Positions 3,070-54,791 of a DNA stretch of 64,000 nucleotides are shown one piece after another. A program made the position numbers and the translations under genes. Location of the stretch: positions 17,527-81,526 of the forward strand of contig JBEKPQ010000015.1 of NCBI GenBank assembly GCA_049520575.1. The letters run 5' to 3'. The notes below the pieces were generated by a model. The model made no database searches, was not told the DNA's origin, and worked only from the letters and a program-made list of their open reading frames with translations. Each line of letters opens with the position of its first letter. Position 1 is the stretch's first letter. This stretch comes from Thermodesulfobacteriota bacterium. GTDB taxonomy: Bacteria; Desulfobacterota; RBG-13-43-22.

Positions 3070-4164
3070 TCATTCTTTTTTTCTTGAGACCAAAGGCAGG
3101 GAAATTTTAACCAGGGTCCCTTTCCCTTCTTCACTGTCCAACTCCAGCTTCCCTCCAGGATGTCCATCGATAATTTTTTTTGAAACGCTGAGACCCAGAC
3201 CCGTGCCCCGACGTTTGGTGGTAAAAAAAGGAGTAAACAACTTGTCCCGATCTTTTGTTGGTATCCCGGGGCCATTGTCAATAATGGAAATTTCCACCTG
3301 GTTGTCCAACGGTTTGGCCTGGATAGTCAAATTACCGCCTTTTTCCATGGCTTCCATGGCGTTTTTTACCAAATTCAAAAAAACCTGTTTTAATTTACCC
3401 GAATCACCCTTAACCCAAAGGGGATCTTTGGGCGTCTTCAACACCAAAGCGATCTTTGCCTTTTTGCAGTCCTCTTTGGAAAGGGAATAAATCTCCTTCA
3501 TCAGGGTATTGATATCCACTTGCTCGAAAACTAATTCTTGAGGACGGTACACATCCTTGAGTTCCAGGATCAGTTTTTCCAACCGCTGGACCTCGTCGGC
3601 GATAATTTTCAACTTGGTCTGACTTTTCTCATCCTGGATGGTCCTGGAAAGCTGCCTGGCGAATCCCCCGATCATGATCAAGGGGTTCTTTATCTCATGG
3701 GTGATTTCGGCCACCAGTTGTCCCAGTGCGGCCAGGCGTTCGGATTGGGCAATCTTTTCCTCGAGGGTCTTGGTTTCCGTCAGATCTCTGATGATTCCAG
3801 TAAAATAAATTTTGCCCTCGATTTCCGAAACGGAAAAGGAAATGGAGAGGGGGAACTTTTCCCCATTCTTCCGGGTAGTCAAAAATTCGGTTTGATGACC
3901 GATGAGTTTTGATTCCCCGGTATTTAAAAACCTGGAAACTGCCTGTTTATGGCCTTTTTCACACTCCGGAGAGAGAATCAATCCCAGATCTTTTCCGATG
4001 ACCTCTTCTCGGGAATAACCAAAGATCTTTTCAGCGGCCTTATTGAAAATGATCACCTGATGATGTTCATCGATGGTGACAAATCCCTCGTTGGTGTTTT
4101 CTGTTGTCCCCCGAAGGATGATTGATTCCAGATCGGAAGGGGGAAGGCCGCATTTTTTCCGCAT
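3070..4164 (-). CDS. PAS-domain sensor histidine kinase
   Basis: PAS region (FVTIDEHHQVIIFNKAAEKIFGY), HisKA H-box (AEITHEIKNPL) and HATPase_c N/G boxes (NLVKNAMEA, DNGPGIP, GTGLGL). Confidence 0.85.
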   Translation of the reverse strand: MRKKCGLPPSDLESIILRGTTENTNEGFVTIDEHHQVIIFNKAAEKIFGYSREEVIGKDLGLILSPECEKGHKQAVSRFLNTGESKLIGHQTEFLTTRKNGEKFPLSISFSVSEIEGKIYFTGIIRDLTETKTLEEKIAQSERLAALGQLVAEITHEIKNPLIMIGGFARQLSRTIQDEKSQTKLKIIADEVQRLEKLILELKDVYRPQELVFEQVDINTLMKEIYSLSKEDCKKAKIALVLKTPKDPLWVKGDSGKLKQVFLNLVKNAMEAMEKGGNLTIQAKPLDNQVEISIIDNGPGIPTKDRDKLFTPFFTTKRRGTGLGLSVSKKIIDGHPGGKLELDSEEGKGTLVKISLPLVSRKKE

Positions 4165-7643: not shown

Positions 7644-7700
7644 GGATTCAAGGATTCAAGTGAAAAGCGTGGAAGTTAAAACCCTTGAATCCTTGAATCC
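7644..7700. repeat. GGATTCAAGGATTCAAGTGAAA element with a matching inverted arm (CTTGAATCCTTGAATCC), hairpin-forming
   Basis: 17-bp inverted repeats 7644-7660 and 7684-7700. Same family as 29550-29605 and the composite copies near trpD. Confidence 0.7.
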
Positions 7701-16320: not shown

Positions 16321-16440
16321 AAAAGAAGGGATCGAGGGTTCAAGAAGTCAAGGCTTGCGGCGAGCTCAGCCGAGCGGATTCGAGTAAAATGCTTGGAACC
16401 AATACCCTTGAATCCTCGGTCCCTTGAAACCTTTGTAGAT
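16321..16440. repeat. modular intergenic repeat of the GGTTCAAG/CTTGAATCC family
   Basis: Shares modules (gggttcaag, gagctcagccgagcgg, cccttgaatcc) with the elements at 42161-42300 and 43381-43625. Confidence 0.6.
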
Positions 16441-26768: not shown

Positions 26769-28130
26769 TTAATGACCTTTTATCTTTTTCATCCTGGCGG
26801 CAAAAAAACCGTCCATCCTATGGGCCGGAGGATAGGTCTGAAAAAAACCTTGGGCATCAATCAGCATACAGGCCGGTTCCGGCAGAAAAGGAGAAACATC
26901 TTCCAATAAAAATTCCGGATGTCCGTTTAAAAAATTTTTAATGACATCCTGATTCTCTTCCCGGCTTAGGGTGCAGGTGCAATAAACCAGAATACCTTTT
27001 GGTTTAAGCCATCTGGCCGCATTTTGCAAGAACTTGTTTTGCATCCGGGCCAGGCGCTTACTGTCTTCCGGGCCGAGCCTCCATTTAAGGTCCGGATTAC
27101 GGCCTATGACCCCCCAGCCTGAACAGGGGGCATCGATCAGGATCCGGTCAAAAGGTCGGGCCGTTTTAGGAAAGAGATCTTCCCTCAGACCATCGCCAAC
27201 CTTCCCTTGAATTACAGTTACCCCCAATCTTCGGGCATTTTCCAGCAAGGCCGTTATCTTTTTGGGATGAAAATCAACAGCCAGGATACTCCCCTGATTA
27301 TTCATCAATTGAGCTAGGTGCCCGGCTTTTCCTCCCGCCCCGGCACAAAGGTCCAAAATCCTTTCACCGGGGTGGGGATCAACCATAGGAGCAATCATCT
27401 GGGAGGCCTCATCCTGGATCTGAAACAGGCCTTGTTGATACAAAGCATCCTGGACCAAGGGTCGTTCCGGCTCTTCAATACGAATCCCTTCCGGAGAGAA
27501 GAAAGTGGTTTCAACCCCAAGGGCCTTGGGTTGAAACCTTTCCAGAAGCTGCTCTCGATCGATCTTCAGGGTATTAACCCGGATGGTGATTGGGGGGATT
27601 TGATTGTTGGCCTGACACAAGGCCTCGGTCTTTTCAAAACCAAAAAGTTCAAGCCAGTGTTCCACCAGCCAGGCCGGGTGGGAGAAGTTGACCGCTAAAT
27701 AGGAAACGGGATCTTCTCGGGAAGGAAAAAGGAGATTTGCTTTCCCCCGCTCCAGAGAACGCAATACGGCATTGACAAAACCTCCTGTCCAAGGCGCCCG
27801 GCTGGATTTAGCCAGCTTTACCGATTCATTGACCGCAGCGGATACCGGAATCCGGGAAAGGAAAAGGAGTTGAAAGACCCCCAGCCTTAAAATAAACAAG
27901 GTCTTCAAAGACAACTTGTTTAAAGGTCTTTGGGAAAATTGTTTTAGGACCCAATCGAGTTTTCCCTGCCAGCGTAGGACCCCGTAAACCAATTGATAAA
28001 GAAGAGCCCGGTCAAGAGTTTTGATTGGGGGATTTTTCCCCAGCAGATCCCGCAAAAGCTGATCCGGATAGGTTCCTGTTCGATGCCAGGCAAGAAGGAC
28101 CTGAAAGGCCATGGATCGTGCAGTGGTCAT
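26769..28130 (-). CDS. rsmB: 16S rRNA (cytosine967-C5)-methyltransferase RsmB/Sun
   Basis: NusB-like N-terminal domain and a SAM-dependent MTase domain (DLCAGAGGK, PCSG). Confidence 0.9.
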   Translation of the reverse strand: MTTARSMAFQVLLAWHRTGTYPDQLLRDLLGKNPPIKTLDRALLYQLVYGVLRWQGKLDWVLKQFSQRPLNKLSLKTLFILRLGVFQLLFLSRIPVSAAVNESVKLAKSSRAPWTGGFVNAVLRSLERGKANLLFPSREDPVSYLAVNFSHPAWLVEHWLELFGFEKTEALCQANNQIPPITIRVNTLKIDREQLLERFQPKALGVETTFFSPEGIRIEEPERPLVQDALYQQGLFQIQDEASQMIAPMVDPHPGERILDLCAGAGGKAGHLAQLMNNQGSILAVDFHPKKITALLENARRLGVTVIQGKVGDGLREDLFPKTARPFDRILIDAPCSGWGVIGRNPDLKWRLGPEDSKRLARMQNKFLQNAARWLKPKGILVYCTCTLSREENQDVIKNFLNGHPEFLLEDVSPFLPEPACMLIDAQGFFQTYPPAHRMDGFFAARMKKIKGH

Positions 28131-28137
28131 CAGCCGA

Positions 28138-29088
28138 TCAGCGTCTCAATCTATCGCCGGCTTTCAAAGCAAACCCTCTCAGCAATTCTTCAGAAGACAT
28201 TCGTCGATGTCCTTCCCATTGTGCTTCCAGTATGGTCAGTAAACCCTGACCGGTCTGAATTTGAATTCGACCTTGCTCTAACGAATTGATCGTCCCCGGA
28301 GTTCCCCTCATTTCCATCGAATCCGGTCTGGCCCGGTGAATGATAAGCCGTTTACCCTGCCAAAAGGTAAAGGCTCCGGGCCAGGGTGACAAACCCCGTA
28401 TCCAGTGGTCTATTTCCACGGCCGGAAGGTCCCAGCGGATCTCTCCCTGGGCCTTTTTTAAGGGTGGGGCATAGCAGACCTGTGAAGGATCCTGCGGTTG
28501 AGGGATAAGGGTGCCTTGTCGAAGCAGCGTCAGTGTTTGAAGCAACAAACGCCCTCCAAGTTCTGAAAGCCGATCATGCAAACTCTGGGCCGTATCGGTT
28601 TCAAAAATTGGCTCGTGTTTCTGAAGCAGGATATCCCCGGTGTCCATCCCGGCATCAAGGCGCATGGTGGTTACGCCGGTTTCTTTTTCCCCGGAGATAA
28701 TGGCCCACTGGATCGGGGCTGCACCGCGATATTTAGGGAGCAAAGAGGCATGGACATTAACAGCCCCCCAGGTTGGGATATCAAGGACTGCCTGGGGAAG
28801 GATCAGGCCATAGGCGACGACAATCAAAAAATCCGGCTTTTGTTCGGCCAGTTGTGCTTGAACAAAACTTTCTTTTAAAGAGACCGGCTGAAAAACAGGC
28901 AGATTATGGGAAAGGGCCAGCTCCTTGACCGGAGAGGGTTGGGATTTTCTGCCCCTTCCTTTCGGCCGATCAGGCTGGGTGTATATTGAAATCACATCTT
29001 CCCCGGCTTTTAGTAAGGCCTTCAGAGACGACAGGGCAAAATCAGGGGTGCCCATAAAGATGAGACGGGGATAATTGGTTGGCTTCAC
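28138..29088 (-). CDS. fmt: methionyl-tRNA formyltransferase
   Basis: Formyl_trans_N (FMGTPDFA, HASLLPKYRGAAPI) and C-terminal domain. Confidence 0.9.
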   Translation of the reverse strand: MKPTNYPRLIFMGTPDFALSSLKALLKAGEDVISIYTQPDRPKGRGRKSQPSPVKELALSHNLPVFQPVSLKESFVQAQLAEQKPDFLIVVAYGLILPQAVLDIPTWGAVNVHASLLPKYRGAAPIQWAIISGEKETGVTTMRLDAGMDTGDILLQKHEPIFETDTAQSLHDRLSELGGRLLLQTLTLLRQGTLIPQPQDPSQVCYAPPLKKAQGEIRWDLPAVEIDHWIRGLSPWPGAFTFWQGKRLIIHRARPDSMEMRGTPGTINSLEQGRIQIQTGQGLLTILEAQWEGHRRMSSEELLRGFALKAGDRLRR

Positions 29089-29542
29089 TCTGGCTTTTTC
29101 AGCTTTTTTTTGACCTTTTTTTTGTAAAGGGCCCGTTTCAGGGCGCTGATGCGGTCGATAAAAAGGATGCCGTCCAGGTGATCAATCTCATGCTGCAGGA
29201 CCGTGGCCAGGACTCCTTCCCCGCAAATCTCCATTGGTTTCCCCTTGGCATTCAGCCCCCGGACTTTTACCTTGGCCTTTCTTTTGACCTCCGAAAAATA
29301 TTCCGGCACACTCAGACAGCCTTCTTCTAAGGTCTGCTCTCCCTCAGCGTCAATAATTTCCGGATTAATCAGGAAGGAGGGTTTTCGGACCTCTTCCCTG
29401 GGCGTTGTATCAAAGACGATGAGCCGTATCGGTCTTCCTACCTGAGTGGCGGCCAGTCCGATCCCCGGGCTATGTCCTTGACCGGTTCCGCCTTCTTTTG
29501 CAGGACAGGATCAGGGTATTTGTATATTTCAAGTAAGGCCAT
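29085..29542 (-). pseudogene. def: peptide deformylase with an internal frameshift/deletion
   Basis: Frame A from ATG 29542 gives MALLEIYKYPDPVLQKKAEPVKDI, then RGSDWPPLR and a stop. The -1 frame continues with motif 1 GIGLAATQV, motif 2 EGCLS and motif 3 QHEIDHLDG. About 19 residues between KDI and GIGLAA are missing. Confidence 0.55.
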
Positions 29543-29549
29543 AAAATCT

Positions 29550-29605
29550 GGATTCAAGGATTCAGGGATTCAAGTGAAAGGCTTGGAAATCAATCTCATG
29601 AATCC
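29550..29605. repeat. GGATTCAAGGATTCAGGGATTCAAGTGAAAGG ... ATGAATCC element (same family as 7644-7700)
   Basis: Sequence identity to the 7644-7700 element. Lies immediately upstream of the def start. Confidence 0.65.
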
Positions 29606-29820
29606 TAGTTTTTTTTAATAAAACTCTTTATTATTTCTTTCCTTAAAATTTGAATTATTAACAATATGCAGAAAAACCCTCTATTACAGGTTGCTCAAAA
29701 AGGTTCAGATACAAGGCGCCCGAAATTCCGAAGAATGAGGCGTAATAGAAGTACGCCGCAATGACGAGGGATGAGGGCAACGCTGTAGATGGGCCTTTTT
29801 CAGTAACCTGTTAATTTTCT

Positions 29821-32313
29821 TTATAACATATCCACCGGGTCCACATCCAGAATAATTTGAACCCCCGTGCCCTGAATCAGCGACTTTTCAGCGCCTTGGA
29901 TCAGGCCGGCCGCCTGATGTAATATCCGGTTGTTTTCCCCTTTTAACAACATCTGCCAGCGATATCTGCCTTTAATTTTACTGATCGGTGCCGGAACCGG
30001 CCCTAATAATTCCAAAGATGCAGCCCACTTGTTTTTTTGTATTTCTTTTCTGAGATACCCGCCGGCTTTTTCGGCCACTTGGGCCACCGCTGTTTCTTGG
30101 TTTCCCTGAAATAAACAATTAATTAATCGGGAGAAGGGCGGGTATTTCAAGGCCCGTCGAAATCGTATTTCCTGGTTATAAAAACCCAGATAGTCATGGT
30201 GCCCAACGTAGTTAAAAATATAATGGTCGGGATTAAAGGTTTGAATATAGACCTGGCCTGGATGAACCCCCCGGCCGGCACGGCCGGCCACCTGGGCCAA
30301 AAGCTGAAAGGTGCGTTCTCCGGCCCGAAAATCAGGCCAGTTCAGAGAAAGGTCGGCAGAGAGGACCCCGATCAGGGTCACCTGGGGGAAATCATGACCT
30401 TTGGTGATCATCTGGGTCCCGATCAGGATATCGGTTTTTTGGTCCCTGAGCTTTTTCAGGATTTCGAAATGGGCCCCTTTTCGATTCACCGTATCCCGAT
30501 CCATGCGGTCGATAGAGGCCTTGGGGAACAAAGCGGCCAATTCCCGTTGAACCTTTTCCGTTCCCATGCCCAGGGCCTTGATCCCTTCCTGATGACAATT
30601 AGGACAGCGTAGCGGCAAAGGCATACGATAGCCGCAGGTGTGGCAGAGGAGTTGGCCTTCCCTGGCGTGATAGGCCAGGGTCAAAGAGCAGTTCCGGCAT
30701 TTGATGACCGCACCACAAAGCGTGCAAAGGATCAAGGTATCAAAGCCCCGGCGATTCAGAAAAAGCAGGGTTTGCTTCCCTTGATCCAGGTTCCGGCCAA
30801 TGGCTTCTTCGAGAGGAGGAGAAAACAAAGAAATCCGTCGGCCCCGGCGAAACTCTTTCATGTCGACAAATTTGATATCCGGTAGGGTTTGTTCCTGAAC
30901 CCGTTTATGTATTCCCAGGTAACCGATTTTTTTTTGCCGCCGCAGATAGAGGGTAGAGATAGAAGGGGTGGCCGATCCCAGAACCACCACAGACGAGGTC
31001 TGCTGACCCCGAACCAAAGCTAGATCCCGGGCATGATAGCGAAGGGAGTCCGTCTGTTTGTAGGAAGAATCGTGCTCCTCATCAACCACGATCAAACCCA
31101 GGGAATTGAAAGGGGCAAAAATCGCCGACCGGGTTCCAATGACCACCGGGGACAAGCCCTCCTGGATCCGCCGCCATTGGTCCAGCCGTTCTCCTGAGTT
31201 CAGGCCGCTGTGAAGCAGAGCGATTTTATCTCCGAAACGCAGGCGAAACCGGCCTTCCATCAGAGGGACCAGACCGATTTCAGGGATCAGGATCAGGACC
31301 TGACGACCCTGTTGTATGGTTTCATCTGCCGCCCTCAAATAGACCTCGGTCTTTCCCGATCCGGTGATCCCATGAAGAAGCAGGCTGTTGTAAGAGCCCG
31401 ACCTCAGCCCTTCCTGTATTCGTGTCAAGGCCTGTTCTTGTTCGGAGGTCAGAACCAAAGGACCTGTTTCCTGGGCCAGGATTTCTCCGAAAGGATTCCT
31501 CATGCAGATCTGTTCCCTGATTTCAATCAAGCCTTTTCGACCAAGAGTGGATAAGCGCTGGGCCGACAGAGGAAAATGTTTCCGTAGATCCTTCAAAGGC
31601 AAACCGGGGAGAGGAGAAAGAAAATCAAAGAGGGGATGATCTTTTATTGAAAATTTGTTTTTTTGGAAATTCGGTCCCGGAAAAACCCATCTTTCTTTTT
31701 TGGGGCGGGCGGTTTCTTTTTTCAGCCGGGTAGTTCGCTGAATCCAACCGTGGTCTTCAAAAGACTTTAGAATTTTTTTCTCTTCCGGCGAGAACCGAGA
31801 GAAAGAACGGCTTTTTGAGGAGGATATGGATTGAAGGATTTCTTTTTCATTTTCTTGCAGACCTCCGGCCTGCAAGGCCTTTATTCCCAGGGGAGTTATT
31901 TCAACCATTTGATAATCGGATACCGACAGACCGGGGGGTAAGGCCGCCTTCAGGACCTGTCCCAGGGGATGAAGATAGTAATGGGCAATCCAGGTAAAAA
32001 AAGGGCGCATGGTCTCTGAAAAAAGGGGCTTCGGATCAAGGATGCTGGAGACGGGTTTAATCGTCGGCCCGACTTCCGGTTTAGTGCATTCCTCCCAAAG
32101 ATAGCCGGTAACCCGCTTTTTTTTCAAGGGCACCAGGACCCGCTGGCCAATCCGGGGTTCTATGGAAAAGTCCGACGGAACCTCGTAAATGAGGGGCTGA
32201 TGGAGCGGCGGGACAATGACTTGAAAGAAAGGCATGATTAAATCTGCTTCTGGTGGAATTTCCAGCGGTTTAATTAATTGATGGAATGACGGTGCTTTTC
32301 TTTCTCGGTCCAT
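29821..32313 (-). CDS. priA: primosomal protein N' (replication-restart helicase PriA)
   Basis: Walker A (GITGSGKT), DEEH box and zinc-binding CxxC pairs (CTLCG...CRNC...CHTC...CPNC). Confidence 0.9.
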   Translation of the reverse strand: MDRERKAPSFHQLIKPLEIPPEADLIMPFFQVIVPPLHQPLIYEVPSDFSIEPRIGQRVLVPLKKKRVTGYLWEECTKPEVGPTIKPVSSILDPKPLFSETMRPFFTWIAHYYLHPLGQVLKAALPPGLSVSDYQMVEITPLGIKALQAGGLQENEKEILQSISSSKSRSFSRFSPEEKKILKSFEDHGWIQRTTRLKKETARPKKERWVFPGPNFQKNKFSIKDHPLFDFLSPLPGLPLKDLRKHFPLSAQRLSTLGRKGLIEIREQICMRNPFGEILAQETGPLVLTSEQEQALTRIQEGLRSGSYNSLLLHGITGSGKTEVYLRAADETIQQGRQVLILIPEIGLVPLMEGRFRLRFGDKIALLHSGLNSGERLDQWRRIQEGLSPVVIGTRSAIFAPFNSLGLIVVDEEHDSSYKQTDSLRYHARDLALVRGQQTSSVVVLGSATPSISTLYLRRQKKIGYLGIHKRVQEQTLPDIKFVDMKEFRRGRRISLFSPPLEEAIGRNLDQGKQTLLFLNRRGFDTLILCTLCGAVIKCRNCSLTLAYHAREGQLLCHTCGYRMPLPLRCPNCHQEGIKALGMGTEKVQRELAALFPKASIDRMDRDTVNRKGAHFEILKKLRDQKTDILIGTQMITKGHDFPQVTLIGVLSADLSLNWPDFRAGERTFQLLAQVAGRAGRGVHPGQVYIQTFNPDHYIFNYVGHHDYLGFYNQEIRFRRALKYPPFSRLINCLFQGNQETAVAQVAEKAGGYLRKEIQKNKWAASLELLGPVPAPISKIKGRYRWQMLLKGENNRILHQAAGLIQGAEKSLIQGTGVQIILDVDPVDML

Positions 32314-42160: not shown

Positions 42161-42300
42161 GATTTGAGGGTTTAGACACTCGACTTTGTCGAGCTATAGA
42201 AAAGGTTCCCCTCCGGGGAACCCGGGATTTAACTTCCGCGCATTTCACTTGAATCCTTGACCCCTTGAATCCTGGGACCCTACTTAGTATTAATTAAAGA
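42161..42300. repeat. composite structured repeat (hairpins, GGTTCCCC/GGGGAACC stem, TTTCACTTGAATCC module)
   Basis: Shares about 70 nt (cgagctatagaaaaggttccc ... gggaacccggg.t.taacttcc...tttcacttgaatccttg) with 43381-43625. Confidence 0.65.
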
Positions 42301-43380: not shown

Positions 43381-43625
43381 AAAAGGGTTCGAGGATTCAA
43401 GGGTTCGAGGGTTCAGCCGCTCGGTCCGCTCGGCTCCGCCGAGCTTCTGAAGAGGCTCCCTCTTGGGAGCCGATCCGGCGAGCTATAGAAAAGGTTCCCG
43501 TACGGTCGGCTTTGCCGACCTAAAAGGGAGGCTTCCGAATGGAAGCCGGATCGGGGAACCCGGGTCTAACTTCCATGCCTTTCACTTGAATCCTTGGACC
43601 CCTGACCCCTTGAATCCTTTTTCAG
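43381..43625. repeat. longer composite copy of the same structured repeat, with two extra inserted hairpins
   Basis: Contains ggattcaagggttcgagggttcag, gccgctcggtccgctcggctccgccgagc, and hairpins ggtcggctttgccgacc and ggcttccgaatggaagcc. Confidence 0.65.
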
Positions 43626-49956: not shown

Positions 49957-50688
49957 ATGAATAATAAAAATAAAATAAGAGAGAAAATCTGTATTGCCCT
50001 TGATGTAGATTCAGGTGCCGAAGCCTTGAGGTTATCAGGCATGTTAAAAAATTATTGTGGATTTTTTAAAATTGGGGTCCAGTTATTTTCTCAGGAAGGG
50101 CCCGATATAGTTAAAAAAGTTATCTCGCTAGGCCCAAAAGTTTTTTTGGACTTAAAATATCATGACATACCCAATACAATAAAAAACACAGTAAAAGTTA
50201 TTGTTGGCCTAGGGATTTCCGTCTTTAATGTCCATACAACAGGCGGGTATGAAATGATGTTGGAAACATCGAATGCTGTAAAAGAGGAATCAAAAAAGTT
50301 AGGTATTCCTAAACCCATGGCAATTGGTGTTACAGTACTTACAAGTATAAATTCAAAAATTCTATCCGAAGAATTAATGATTAAACAGGATTTGAGTGAA
50401 TATGTTGTACATTTATCAAAATTGGCTAAAAAGGCTGGCTTAGATGGGGTTGTCGCATCTCCGCATGAAATAAAAATAATTAGGAAATCCTGTGGACCTA
50501 ATTTCAAAATTATAACACCAGGGGTAAGACCTTCATGGTCCTTAGGAGTAGATGACCAAAAAAGGATAATGACTCCGAATGAAGCAATAAAAAATGGAGC
50601 AGATTTTATTGTTGTTGGACGTCCAATAATAAAGGCTAAGGATCCCGTTGAGGCTGCAAAAAAACTCCTTAACGAGATATTAAGTTAA
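49957..50688 (+). CDS. pyrF: orotidine-5'-phosphate decarboxylase (type 1, B. subtilis-like), AT-rich
   Basis: Full-length OMPdecase. Catalytic DLKYHDIP (DxKxxD), substrate-loop motifs and a C-terminal GRPI phosphate-binding motif. Confidence 0.9.
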   Translation: MNNKNKIREKICIALDVDSGAEALRLSGMLKNYCGFFKIGVQLFSQEGPDIVKKVISLGPKVFLDLKYHDIPNTIKNTVKVIVGLGISVFNVHTTGGYEMMLETSNAVKEESKKLGIPKPMAIGVTVLTSINSKILSEELMIKQDLSEYVVHLSKLAKKAGLDGVVASPHEIKIIRKSCGPNFKIITPGVRPSWSLGVDDQKRIMTPNEAIKNGADFIVVGRPIIKAKDPVEAAKKLLNEILS

Positions 50689-50689
50689 G

Positions 50690-51112
50690 ATGAAAGAACT
50701 CCCCGACTTATTAGTATTTACTGGCGAAGAGGTTATAAAATCTGAGGTTAATAATACATTAAATTTGGCCCCTTTTAAAAAGCTTAGATATAAGGGGCTC
50801 CCGAAGTATTTATCCGTTGAGTATCCAAAGGAAATAAGGTTTTTATCTTTCTTTCTAATAAATTTATTGGAAGATATATTTTATAATTTGATCGGGGACT
50901 TCCCATATGAAGATAGTTTTGGGGATCAAATTCATGCGGTTAGGAAAGATTTTTTTAAATTTATGAGCGAAAAGTTTATCGAGATTGGAAAAGCAATATT
51001 AATCAATGATTATTTAATAATACCTACTAGGTTTACAGAGTTGGTAGTAGACTATTTGACAGTAATAGAAAAGATAAACACTATTATTGACGAAGGACAT
51101 TTGAAGTGCTGA
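50690..51112 (+). CDS. hypothetical protein (140 aa, soluble, AT-rich)
   Basis: ATG lies 1 nt after the pyrF stop. No recognisable motif. Confidence 0.4.
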   Translation: MKELPDLLVFTGEEVIKSEVNNTLNLAPFKKLRYKGLPKYLSVEYPKEIRFLSFFLINLLEDIFYNLIGDFPYEDSFGDQIHAVRKDFFKFMSEKFIEIGKAILINDYLIIPTRFTELVVDYLTVIEKINTIIDEGHLKC

Positions 51113-51528
51113 GCATAAGCCTTTTTTTGACTACAAAAACATTGTGGGCTTTAATATGCTATGCTAGCCGAATTATCCTTGAGGGAATAATAGATGAATT
51201 CAGGTTAATAAAAAGATTGGGAGTGGATTTTTCATATATTTCACTTGTATTTATCGGCTTTAATTTGATTCAAAAAGAACCACGTCCTCGATTCTACTCC
51301 TTTGTTGATATGTTAACAAAACAATATCCGGATATAAATGAAAAATTTTCACCAATAATATTAGTAGTTTTTACTCTTCTTCTTTTAGGATTATCAATAT
51401 TCTGTCAAAAACATTTTAATAAAACAAGCAGTAATACTTTTAAAGGCCTGCTAATAAAAGGATTGGCAATTACAATCAGTTATGGTATAGGTGTTGCTTT
51501 ATTTTTATTGGCTGTAGTTATTCAGTAA
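51106..51528 (+). CDS. hypothetical small membrane protein (about 4 TM)
   Basis: Overlapping GTG start. Hydrophobic segments throughout. Confidence 0.4.
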   Translation: MLSISLFLTTKTLWALICYASRIILEGIIDEFRLIKRLGVDFSYISLVFIGFNLIQKEPRPRFYSFVDMLTKQYPDINEKFSPIILVVFTLLLLGLSIFCQKHFNKTSSNTFKGLLIKGLAITISYGIGVALFLLAVVIQ

Positions 51529-51551
51529 AATAAGTGGAAAAGGAGGGCGTA

Positions 51552-52208
51552 GAGATGGAAAATTTATACATTCTAAAAATTTTCCTTGAACCAACAATAA
51601 TATTGCCCACCATTTTAATGATGATAATCATCTTTTTTGTCATGGTAAGAATTATTAAAAAGGAAAGGACAGAATCTTTAGTATATCCAGGTATAAGTAA
51701 AAGTCATTGGTTTACGGTAGGGGGAACAGAAAGCAAATTCTATTATGATATTGATAAGGGCGCCTCTTCCCTGGAAGGAATTCAAAGAATTTCAAATTGG
51801 TATGTTGATAACATCAAAGAATTAAAGAAAAAGAAAAAAATTGATGGCTTAGCGTTTATTGAACGCGAAGATGGTCCAATTGGTGCTATAACAAAAAAAG
51901 ATCTTATTTCCTTTATGACAAATATTTCTTCTTTTGTTGTCCGGCCAAAGAGAAGAATTAAAGCTTCGGCTATCAAAGGGGCAGAAAATATTCAAGGCAA
52001 GGATATTGTTGTAATCAGTGATGTGGCGACTACGGGTTATTCTGTTGAAAAGGTAATAGATATTATTCAAACTTGTAACGCGCGAGTTGTTGCCGCAATA
52101 ACTATTCTTAACCGCGGCGGTTCAAAAACAGAGGACCTTTTTAAAGAAAAGAAAATCGATTTTATTTACGCCGCTGATAATGATGATATAAAAAATTATG
52201 TGTCTTAA
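51552..52208 (+). CDS. membrane-anchored type-I phosphoribosyltransferase, orotate-PRTase-like
   Basis: AAGGAGGG Shine-Dalgarno 7 nt before ATG 51552. N-terminal TM helix (LEPTIILPTILMMIIIFFVMV), then a PRTase fold with a PRPP-binding motif (DIVVISDVATTGYS) and OPRT-like SKFYYDID. Confidence 0.6.
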   Translation, partial: EMENLYILKIFLEPTIILPTILMMIIIFFVMVRIIKKERTESLVYPGISKSHWFTVGGTESKFYYDIDKGASSLEGIQRISNWYVDNIKELKKKKKIDGLAFIEREDGPIGAITKKDLISFMTNISSFVVRPKRRIKASAIKGAENIQGKDIVVISDVATTGYSVEKVIDIIQTCNARVVAAITILNRGGSKTEDLFKEKKIDFIYAADNDDIKNYVS

Positions 52209-52566
52209 AATTTTATTAAATGGCAATAAAATTTAAATTGAGAGGACATCACACTTATTTTTTTAAGTTAAAAATTAAATGAGTATGGTGTCCCCTGTTA
52301 TTGCAGTTCTTGTACTGACTTTTATTGATAAAAAATTGCTTTTTTTGAAGAGTATAAAATGAGAAAAAGGAACGGTCAAGGATAAAAACTGGGCGGAAGG
52401 GATAGGGGGCGTCTTCTGAAGAAAATGAGACTATGCAGGGTTGTGCCTTACAAATTGATTACCATTTGTAATATAGCATAAAGAGCCAAAATTTAAATTC
52501 ACGACTACAGGAAGAATGCACCATCAAACTTGATGATGCCTGTATAGTCAAATCCTGACTTTCACA

Positions 52567-52597
52567 CATTAAATCCCTGGAATTCACATTTTATGGG
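52567..52597 (+). repeat. right direct repeat (CATTAAATCCCTGGAATTCACATTTTATGGG) of the pyrF/PRTase cassette
   Basis: See 49477-49510. Confidence 0.75.
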
Positions 52598-52671
52598 AAA
52601 TGTCTCGCACAGATCGGAAATAAAGAACCGTGCGCAACCTCTATTTTCGTCCTTAGAATAGACCTCCTCTT

Positions 52672-54156
52672 CTATTGGGACTTAAAATGACTCTCTTGAA
52701 TAAGATTAGTTTCTTTAAAATTTAAATGGTTTTTTTCGGCTTCATATGCTTCCTCTCCATGTGTGAAGAAGTGTTTGTTTCTAATCTCATCTGTTATAGA
52801 GCCTGAAGTCCCAACAAGTTTTGTATCTATATACTTTTTATAAATAGAATTCACAATTGTTTTAAAAAACTCATCATAATTCTTTTCGTCGATAGTAAGA
52901 TTTATTTCATTGCCATCCTTTGAATATTTCAAAATCTTTCGTATTCTGAAAACTATGACAGGGAATATATGCTCGATGTTATAATTCGTCATCTTTTTTA
53001 TTGCTTTATCGCTCTCTTCTGTTAGTTCGTTATTATTAATTAATCGTATTTTGTCTCTTAGCGATGTTTCTCCTAGTTCTTCCAACAATGCCTTTTCTTT
53101 GATATCTCTGTAGATTATTTCTTTTTGAATCCTGAGGTATCGTAATACGTAGTTTTCCCGAATTTGATACAAAAAGGGAATCAATTTTGAAATGACCTGA
53201 ATAGTCTCCTGTGCTTTTTCTCTATTTTTTATTAATTTTATAAAAAGATTATAAATTGGTATTCTTTGATTTGCGTATTTATGAATGTCCTTTTCTTTGG
53301 TCAAAATACCAGTAGATACCACCGGCCTTAGTAAAGTAAGAATGTGTACTTTTGGCCCCTTTTCAACAATCTCCCCCAATCGATATTCTATCTTGAGAGA
53401 TTCTCCGTATTTATTTTCAAATTCTTTAAAAATATTATCCTTCAGCTCTCTTTTATATCTAGAGCCAAATATATCGTCGATAGCAACTTTTTGGGTTTCA
53501 TTATTTGCCCCGGCTATTAGAGTTCCAGCTGAATATTCATCTAACTCATCAACAGCATCGAGAATACGATCAATCACATTAATTTGTATCCTGATCTTGC
53601 TTGTTAAAAAATCCTCTAATTTTAGCTCATTAAAACATCTTTGGTATTTCCCTTCTCCCTTAATAAAGGATACAATTTCATTCACCCTCCCAAACTTTAC
53701 AAATTTAAGGAAGGATATGACTTTTTCGTCTCTGAGGTTTTCTTTTAGAAATTGATGAAAGGACTTGGCCGTGATATTCTCTAATAAATTTTCTGATGTA
53801 TAATATTTTAATAGGGCCAGTATTAGGATTATGAACCTAGTTTGATTTCCATTGGTCAAACAACAGCTTTTAAACTTTAGAGTATTTTCGCTGGAAAAGC
53901 TCAAACCAGTTAGAGAAACGATCATTCCTGAATGCAAAAATCGGAACATATTTTTTGGATCTTTTAGAAGGCTTTTTATGATTTCAATATTGGACTTTTT
54001 CAAACCATTATATTCCCGGGGATTGCTTCCAGCTTCACTATCTCTATAATCCAAAAATAGAATATCTTTAAATAAAGTTTCTCCTAAAATACTTTTTTTA
54101 TCTCCTGAGTACCAATATTTATCTGGAAAAGAGATAGTGTTTTCTTTTGAGAACAT
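52672..54156 (-). CDS. large hypothetical protein (494 aa), possible Abi/AIPR-like abortive-infection protein with a C-terminal HEPN-like Rx6H motif
   Basis: AT-rich, Lys/Glu-rich. C-terminal motif EIRNKHFFTHGEE. Translationally coupled to the upstream HEPN gene (14-nt gap). Confidence 0.45.
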   Translation of the reverse strand: MFSKENTISFPDKYWYSGDKKSILGETLFKDILFLDYRDSEAGSNPREYNGLKKSNIEIIKSLLKDPKNMFRFLHSGMIVSLTGLSFSSENTLKFKSCCLTNGNQTRFIILILALLKYYTSENLLENITAKSFHQFLKENLRDEKVISFLKFVKFGRVNEIVSFIKGEGKYQRCFNELKLEDFLTSKIRIQINVIDRILDAVDELDEYSAGTLIAGANNETQKVAIDDIFGSRYKRELKDNIFKEFENKYGESLKIEYRLGEIVEKGPKVHILTLLRPVVSTGILTKEKDIHKYANQRIPIYNLFIKLIKNREKAQETIQVISKLIPFLYQIRENYVLRYLRIQKEIIYRDIKEKALLEELGETSLRDKIRLINNNELTEESDKAIKKMTNYNIEHIFPVIVFRIRKILKYSKDGNEINLTIDEKNYDEFFKTIVNSIYKKYIDTKLVGTSGSITDEIRNKHFFTHGEEAYEAEKNHLNFKETNLIQESHFKSQ

Positions 54157-54170
54157 TTCACACCCCTATT

Positions 54171-54791
54171 TTATTTAATTAATTTTCTCATATTTATAGA
54201 GGCCATCTTAAAAGCAGACAGCAATTTCATAAAGCGATCCCCTTTTCCATGGTTTAAAAATAATCCAGGCTTTTGAAAGTTGTTTTGTTTATAGAGACCC
54301 ATATAACCTTCTATTAAAGTTTTTTTCGAAAATGTAGAATAATGTGAAAGGTAGTTTCTGATTTTATAAATAAAACTAATTTTGTTTATTTGGTCTTTGG
54401 AAACATTTAAAAGAAGATTATAGCGTTCACATAAAATTTTTTTATAGAACCCTTTTGTTCTTTCCAAGTCATGTAGGTCTCTATACCTATCTGAAAAAAT
54501 TATGGCTCTAACAAGTTCAGCAGTAAGTCGTGTATTAGGTGTTAAACCAAATTCTGCCTTTATATTTTTAGTATCAAGAAGGGTACAAAATATCACTTCT
54601 TTCTCAAGAAAAAGTTCCCAAAATGCGCATGCTCTTAAAACCAACGACTCTAATATTAGATATTTTTCCTCTTTTTTTATTTGACGTGAATAAGGAATTC
54701 CACAAATAATTTCGGAAGCATACTGCAATAGATTTTCTATTTCTTTCTCAAAAGTCTCGTGATTTTTTAAAATGGATTTTCTAATATCCAT
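54171..54791 (-). CDS. HEPN-superfamily protein (R-N-x-x-x-H motif)
   Basis: 206 aa, mostly alpha-helical, with the canonical Rx4-6H motif KIRNYLSHYS at residues 136-145. AT-rich. Confidence 0.5.
   Translation of the reverse strand: MDIRKSILKNHETFEKEIENLLQYASEIICGIPYSRQIKKEEKYLILESLVLRACAFWELFLEKEVIFCTLLDTKNIKAEFGLTPNTRLTAELVRAIIFSDRYRDLHDLERTKGFYKKILCERYNLLLNVSKDQINKISFIYKIRNYLSHYSTFSKKTLIEGYMGLYKQNNFQKPGLFLNHGKGDRFMKLLSAFKMASINMRKLIK

Follow-up and report, generated by a model that had tools for sequence, protein, structure and literature searches.

The def gene is normally essential, which raises the question of what its split form represents in the 64,000-nt stretch of Thermodesulfobacteriota DNA analysed here (the window): a genuine lesion, a fault of assembly, or two reading frames that are joined at the ribosome. 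On balance we favour the first answer, namely that the def of the window is an ordinary type-1 peptide deformylase (PDF) gene in an allele that was broken recently, and that such alleles at this locus are real and loss-of-function.

In the window, def lies downstream of priA and opens a def-fmt-rsmB cluster (Table 1). Read from its ATG, frame 0 encodes MALLEIYKYPDPVLQKKAEPVKDI followed by ten further codons (ARGSDWPPLR) and a stop, and PF01327 matches this fragment over profile positions 2–23 with 16.8 bits, below the curated cut-off. The remainder of the gene reads PGIGLAATQV ... EGCLS ... QHEIDHLDG ... KKPE in the −1 frame and matches profile positions 44–155 (E = 5.9e-37), which leaves about 20 positions absent between the two fragments. 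The catalytic motifs I (GxGxAAxQ), II (EGCLS) and III (HExxH), as defined in PMC12690207, all lie in this 3' part, as GIGLAATQ, EGCLS and HEIDH. Within its −1 frame, no ATG, GTG or TTG occurs ahead of GTG 29309, which is already past motif 2. No single open reading frame (ORF) of the window's def matches the whole PF01327 profile. The GTG start of fmt at 29088 overlaps the def TGA (GTGA); JGI places the fmt start at ATG 29055 (305 aa). These frames, stops and profile fragments agree with the first-pass annotation, which had described the def upstream of fmt as disrupted, its N-terminus stopping ten codons on in one frame and its motifs 1–3 continuing in the −1 frame.

Table 1. Features of the def-fmt locus, in window positions
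Feature	Position	Strand	Details
rsmB-like 16S rRNA methyltransferase, 453 aa, intact	26769..28130	(-)	Downstream neighbour; Pfam families of the JGI gene call
fmt, methionyl-tRNA formyltransferase, 316 aa, intact	28138..29088	(-)	Pfam PF00551 + PF02911
def 3' part, -1 (+2) frame	29085..29468	(-)	PGIGLAATQV, EGCLS, QHEIDH; TGA 29087-29085
def 5' fragment	29438..29542	(-)	ATG 29542; 24 native + 10 out-of-frame codons; TAG 29440-29438
Deletion junction; 52 nt ACGCCTCCATACAAAAGCTGATTGAGGACATGCTCGAAACCATGTATCAGGC absent (def nt 74-125)	between 29470 and 29469	(-)	Alignment with L001 and nine intact same-strain contigs
Three tandem 8-mers (GGATTCAA family)	29550..29575		8 nt upstream of the def ATG
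priA, 830 aa, intact	29821..32313	(-)	Upstream neighbour of def

The gene is found whole elsewhere in the same strain. An exact look-up of the window's Fmt protein led to a Logan contig (L001, run SRR13021902) that is 100% identical to window positions 27106–29660, over 2555 nt, except for 52 extra nt between 29470 and 29469, and that encodes an uninterrupted Def of 169 aa. Exactly this protein (P0121) is present on 13 contigs; among the matches listed are 10 contigs from 10 metagenomes, eight at JGI (3300039412, 3300038423, 3300040942, 3300017929, 3300044824, 3300017940, 3300038429 and 3300037843) and two Logan runs (SRR13021902 and SRR13201612). The 52 nt are present in all 10 of the same-strain contigs among the matches listed, none of which exceeds 5.7 kb, and in eight of the 10 the DNA overlapping the window is identical to it (the exceptions are L169 and L172). 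The intact gene is therefore the common state of the strain. P0121 matches PF01327 over its full length (positions 2–155, E = 4e-54), and its alignments with solved PDFs (about 1e-43) likewise run from end to end; as judged from its sequence, the organism's normal def product is a standard 169-aa enzyme.

The two exceptions are observations in their own right. L169 (with L082, JGI Ga0187849_1042460), from a 2015 sample and of the same strain, has one mismatch to the window and a 1-nt deletion in the G6 run of fmt (window position 28769), with def intact. Its fmt is called as pieces of 138 and 175 aa, which points either to an error from low coverage or to a further, independent lesion of the formylation cycle in this population. 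L172 (JGI Ga0427951_081667), compared with window positions 28863–29163, matches the window exactly upstream of 29163; from there downward it carries 23 mismatches (about 96% identity), through the 3' end of def and fmt. Its alignment reads as the pattern of closely related strains that co-occur in these samples, or of a chimeric contig.

Among relatives, which per their sources are Thermodesulfobacteriota, Deltaproteobacteria bacterium RBG_13_43_22 and Desulfobacca, Def proteins at 75–93% identity are full-length, so that alignment with close relatives also marks the window's def as disrupted. N-terminally truncated Def proteins do occur in relatives (P0091 and others), with an internal Met as their start. 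P0091, on ENA ERZ25039554 contig_91261 (L184), is the only one of these on a long contig, where homopolymer indels have left def broken, priA shortened and fmt and rsmB fused. A break common to the relatives was therefore rejected: homopolymer indels across several genes are the pattern of long-read error and not of a hot spot. Errors of this type account for truncated "MIETMY..." deformylase entries in protein databases.

The region upstream of def contains repeated sequence, as the first-pass annotation had noted in reporting a repeat element adjoining the gene start; this element is the set of three tandem 8-mers in Table 1. The window holds 25 matches to the GGATTCAAGG family (at most one mismatch) against 9.7 expected, a count reached in none of 100 shuffles, and further tandem 8-mers of the family lie at 7644–7700, 16406–16431, 42247–42281, 43383–43415 and 43584–43617. 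Three relatives (L084, L002 and L184) have analogous CTGAATYC/CTGGATTC tandem copies upstream of def, and the 8-mers look like a lineage-wide feature of the 5' leader. The priA-def spacer additionally holds an element of roughly 150 nt (29662–29815), which is single-copy in the window; Rfam gives no match at gathering score here or anywhere else in the window. In relatives it is found between fmt and rsmB (L002, 11498–11703), at 3588–3644 (L084), and both after rsmB and upstream of def (L083), with the downstream copies of L002 and L083 in opposite orientation. It resembles a small intergenic element of the mobile or repeated kind. Farther away, at about 49957–54791, the GC content falls to 0.325 from about 0.49. 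This low-GC stretch encodes an OMP-decarboxylase homologue, two 140-aa ORFs with no Pfam match, a 206-aa ORF, a phosphoribosyltransferase-domain protein with a weak ShosT match and a 494-aa ORF with weak AIPR and PtuB matches, and could be an accessory or defence island of acquired origin.

Relative to the intact gene, the window lacks one contiguous segment of 52 nt (17 1/3 codons), whose placement is unique (nt 74–125, ACGCC...CAGGC) and whose ends have 0 nt of microhomology. As 52 = 17×3 + 1, frameshift and codon loss are one event; the first-pass reading of a frameshift plus a loss of about 19 codons was right as to both defects, and it is their separation into two events that does not hold. 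The deletion moves motifs 1–3 into the −1 frame, so that translation from the ATG stops after 34 codons, and it removes Def residues 25–42 (DASIQKLIEDMLETMYQA), corresponding to profile positions 24–43. These residues, the segment before GIGLAA that had already been reported as absent, are what we take from PDF structures to be the N-terminal helix preceding motif 1 and packing on the catalytic core; they align with DESLQTLINDMFDTMYDA of the solved PDF 6CAZ. The window's copy would be expected to yield no functional deformylase.

None of the local 11-mers of the deletion site recurs nearby, and the intact site shows nothing unusual in its DNA fold (z = 0.15, no hairpin); a deletion driven by a hairpin or repeat was rejected. 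Excision of an adapter or vector was rejected by eye, as the missing sequence (52 nt here, 39 nt when the window is compared with the second allele described below) resembles no Illumina, PacBio or ONT adapter to our knowledge. At NCBI, a broken def of this kind appears as MGA3084100.1 (P0123), a 125-aa "peptide deformylase" (MGLAATQV...) whose contig, of 85,128 nt, belongs to a Thermodesulfobacteriota MAG. The ATC start of this protein lies inside motif 1 and it bears no pseudogene flag, which marks it as an annotation artefact.

def is broken on two independent contigs. The PriA, CarB and TrpB proteins of the window all led to Ga0427919_0000629 (85,151 nt, JGI sample 3300037993), which comes from a separate JGI assembly and carries a different deletion. 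Against window positions 3098–56772 (53.7 kb) this contig is 100.000% identical, with 0 mismatches and 0 gaps outside the def site. At that site it reads ...CTCGAAACCCGGGGATCGG and has 39 nt more than the window; compared with the intact gene it lacks 13 nt, a deletion that has 2 nt of microhomology and can be placed from nt 113–125 through 115–127. In the leftmost placement it ends at nt 125, where the 52-nt deletion also ends. This common end, between nt 125 and 126, immediately precedes CCCGGGG, where the intact gene has the palindrome CCCCGGGG. The lengths of the two deletions are each 1 mod 3. JGI calls the def of this contig as pieces of 47 and 74 aa, the 47-aa product being found on this contig alone. 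The only long contigs are those two that carry broken alleles, and the odd point of the locus is just this: two different deletions with a common end on long contigs that are otherwise identical.

How, then, is the pair to be explained? We propose that one abundant peat population of Thermodesulfobacteriota carries broken def alleles; these would be real losses of function that arose very recently in the single population in which this organism is abundant. The copy in the window is disrupted where its same-lineage orthologues, on the 10 same-strain contigs and in the relatives, are intact, as after a recent loss of function, and the complete lack of substitutions in the flanks points to a very recent lesion. 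The two deletions could have arisen by breakage and end-joining at one point, with 0 and 2 nt of microhomology. A de Bruijn assembler, moreover, requires reads that contain a given junction when no repeats flank it. That the lesion lies in the organism's DNA is supported indirectly by the second, different deletion in the separate JGI assembly.

A real def knock-out would imply compensation, for example by a second def, which the first-pass annotation had named beside an assembly error and recoding. A tblastn search of the 64-kb window with E. coli PDF brought up the broken copy but no second def. Its one weak match, at 481–723, falls within an unrelated 237-aa ORF that has no deformylase motifs, presumably ParA/CooC-like to judge from its sequence, and was set aside. 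The examined parts of the 85-kb contig Ga0427919_0000629 likewise held no second def. If the lesion is real, deformylase activity may be supplied by a second def elsewhere, or the premature stop may lower translation of the overlapping fmt, since a premature stop in def would be expected to uncouple the translation of fmt from it. Roughly one bacterial species in two has more than one PDF gene, and E. coli remains viable as a def-fmt double mutant (PMC12690207). Loss of def is also tolerated in fmt-deficient backgrounds, according to the account that PMC12690207 gives of Mazel et al. 1994.

A distinct possibility, although we consider it less probable than not, is that the organism has an intact def and that an assembler, a bin re-assembly or a polisher mis-resolved a difficult or heterogeneous spot in one deep-coverage data set; a local re-assembly that was anchored at a break where reads are clipped, for example, would produce a second deletion with the same end. 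All other assemblies of the strain are intact, and the broken alleles are restricted to two long contigs of deep coverage that differ, across 53.7 kb, at the def site only. The lengths of the NCBI MAG contig and of the JGI contig suggest independent assemblies of one population, and strains about 96% identical co-occur in these samples, as L172 indicates. The shared 3' end of the 52-nt and 13-nt deletions would also fit such an error, and def is normally essential. The 52-nt allele, furthermore, is absent elsewhere in the collections searched: exact look-ups there gave 0 matches for the products of 34, 39 and 74 aa and for NCBI's 125-aa protein, and the relatives that came up in scans of GTDB representative genomes and JGI metagenome contigs were all intact. 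Against an assembly error, however, a graph assembler would find at the site neither repeat nor microhomology nor hairpin by which to skip the 52 or the 13 nt. The remaining large ORFs of the window are long and intact (up to 1073 aa), so that its sequence is not error-ridden overall, and away from the def site the window is in perfect agreement with other assemblies. The JGI contig carries a deletion too, although the JGI pipeline that produced it is not known to include a polishing step.

The coincidence of the two end points can be taken further. For independent random events in a 510-nt gene, a coincident end is expected in roughly 3 of 510 cases, which suggests that something non-random is at work. 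A nuclease might cut def at the CCCCGGGG palindrome, just 5' of the motif-1 codons, with end-joining then producing an anchored series of deletions; a homing or mobile-element endonuclease, a self-targeting CRISPR system and a restriction enzyme are candidates. Alternatively, selection might act, with natural deformylase inhibitors favouring loss of the formylation cycle. We consider it quite improbable that either operates here. In favour are the two different deletions with their common end at nt 125/126 in an otherwise clonal background, the little or no microhomology at the junctions, the separate 1-nt frameshift of fmt in another sample of the strain, and the low-GC island at about 50–55 kb with its weak defence-like matches. 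On the other hand, the window has neither a CRISPR-like array nor a further copy of the site, a point mutation would be a cheaper escape from a nuclease, and the whole idea is inferential. CCCGGG is kept in both deleted alleles, which argues against a SmaI/XmaI-type cut with loss of the site, and the junction is off the SmaI/XmaI cleavage position; a restriction cut at CCCGGG was accordingly rejected. Only two alleles are known, and on these a fragile or targeted site is possible. That def in a clonal peat population has been struck repeatedly between nt 125 and 126, by a nuclease or through selection, to give a family of anchored knock-out deletions, seems a long shot. If it were so, a nuclease aimed at conserved def sequence would be a weapon of a mobile element or phage, or a case of self-targeting.

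Recoding, which the first-pass annotation had left as an option and in which a programmed −1 ribosomal frameshift near GCC CGG GGA would make the split def into one protein, is hardly tenable: the 3' part does lie in the same (−1) frame in both deleted alleles, but the frame overlap GAC ATA GCC CGG GGA TCG GAC ... has no X XXY YYZ slippery heptamer, def is one uninterrupted ORF on the intact contigs of the same strain and in all close relatives, a fused product would be without the conserved helix of residues 25–42, and unsubstituted flanks indicate a very recent, derived lesion and not an evolved device.

Thus, our preferred reading remains that of real and recent knock-out alleles. The case is in any event ordinary in kind, whether a standard def has recently lost its function by deletion or has been mis-assembled, and it represents no new system. 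Annotations should flag the window's def as a disrupted or possibly mis-assembled allele; it is not a 125-aa "peptide deformylase", nor should it be cited as evidence of recoding. If the alleles are real, this is a natural population in which an essential translation gene has been knocked out at one fragile or targeted site; if they are not, it is a reproducible failure of assembly.

Comparison with known systems places the locus as follows. The strain's intact Def is a full-length member of the type 1 (E. coli-like) PDFs of PF01327 (1BS4, 6CAZ), with GIGLAATQ, EGCLS and HEIDH. The window's copy keeps these motifs in its DNA, but its ORF is split, residues 25–42 are gone and the catalytic part is out of frame and lacks a usable start codon. 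With genes expressed by programmed −1 frameshifting, such as dnaX and the IS3-family transposases, it has in common overlapping frames and a downstream part in the −1 frame; unlike them, it has no slippery heptamer and no conservation, and it is a derived deletion with the helix missing. The order def, fmt, rsmB is that of the def-fmt(-rsmB) operon of E. coli and Vibrio cholerae (PMC12690207), and the GTGA overlap of def and fmt is the arrangement expected for translational coupling. In contrast to those operons, def is truncated here about 350 nt before fmt, and any coupling would therefore be lost. Finally, genomes with accessory PDFs and fmt-deficient backgrounds are the known routes to a viable def knock-out, and the window differs from the fmt-deficient backgrounds in that its fmt is intact.
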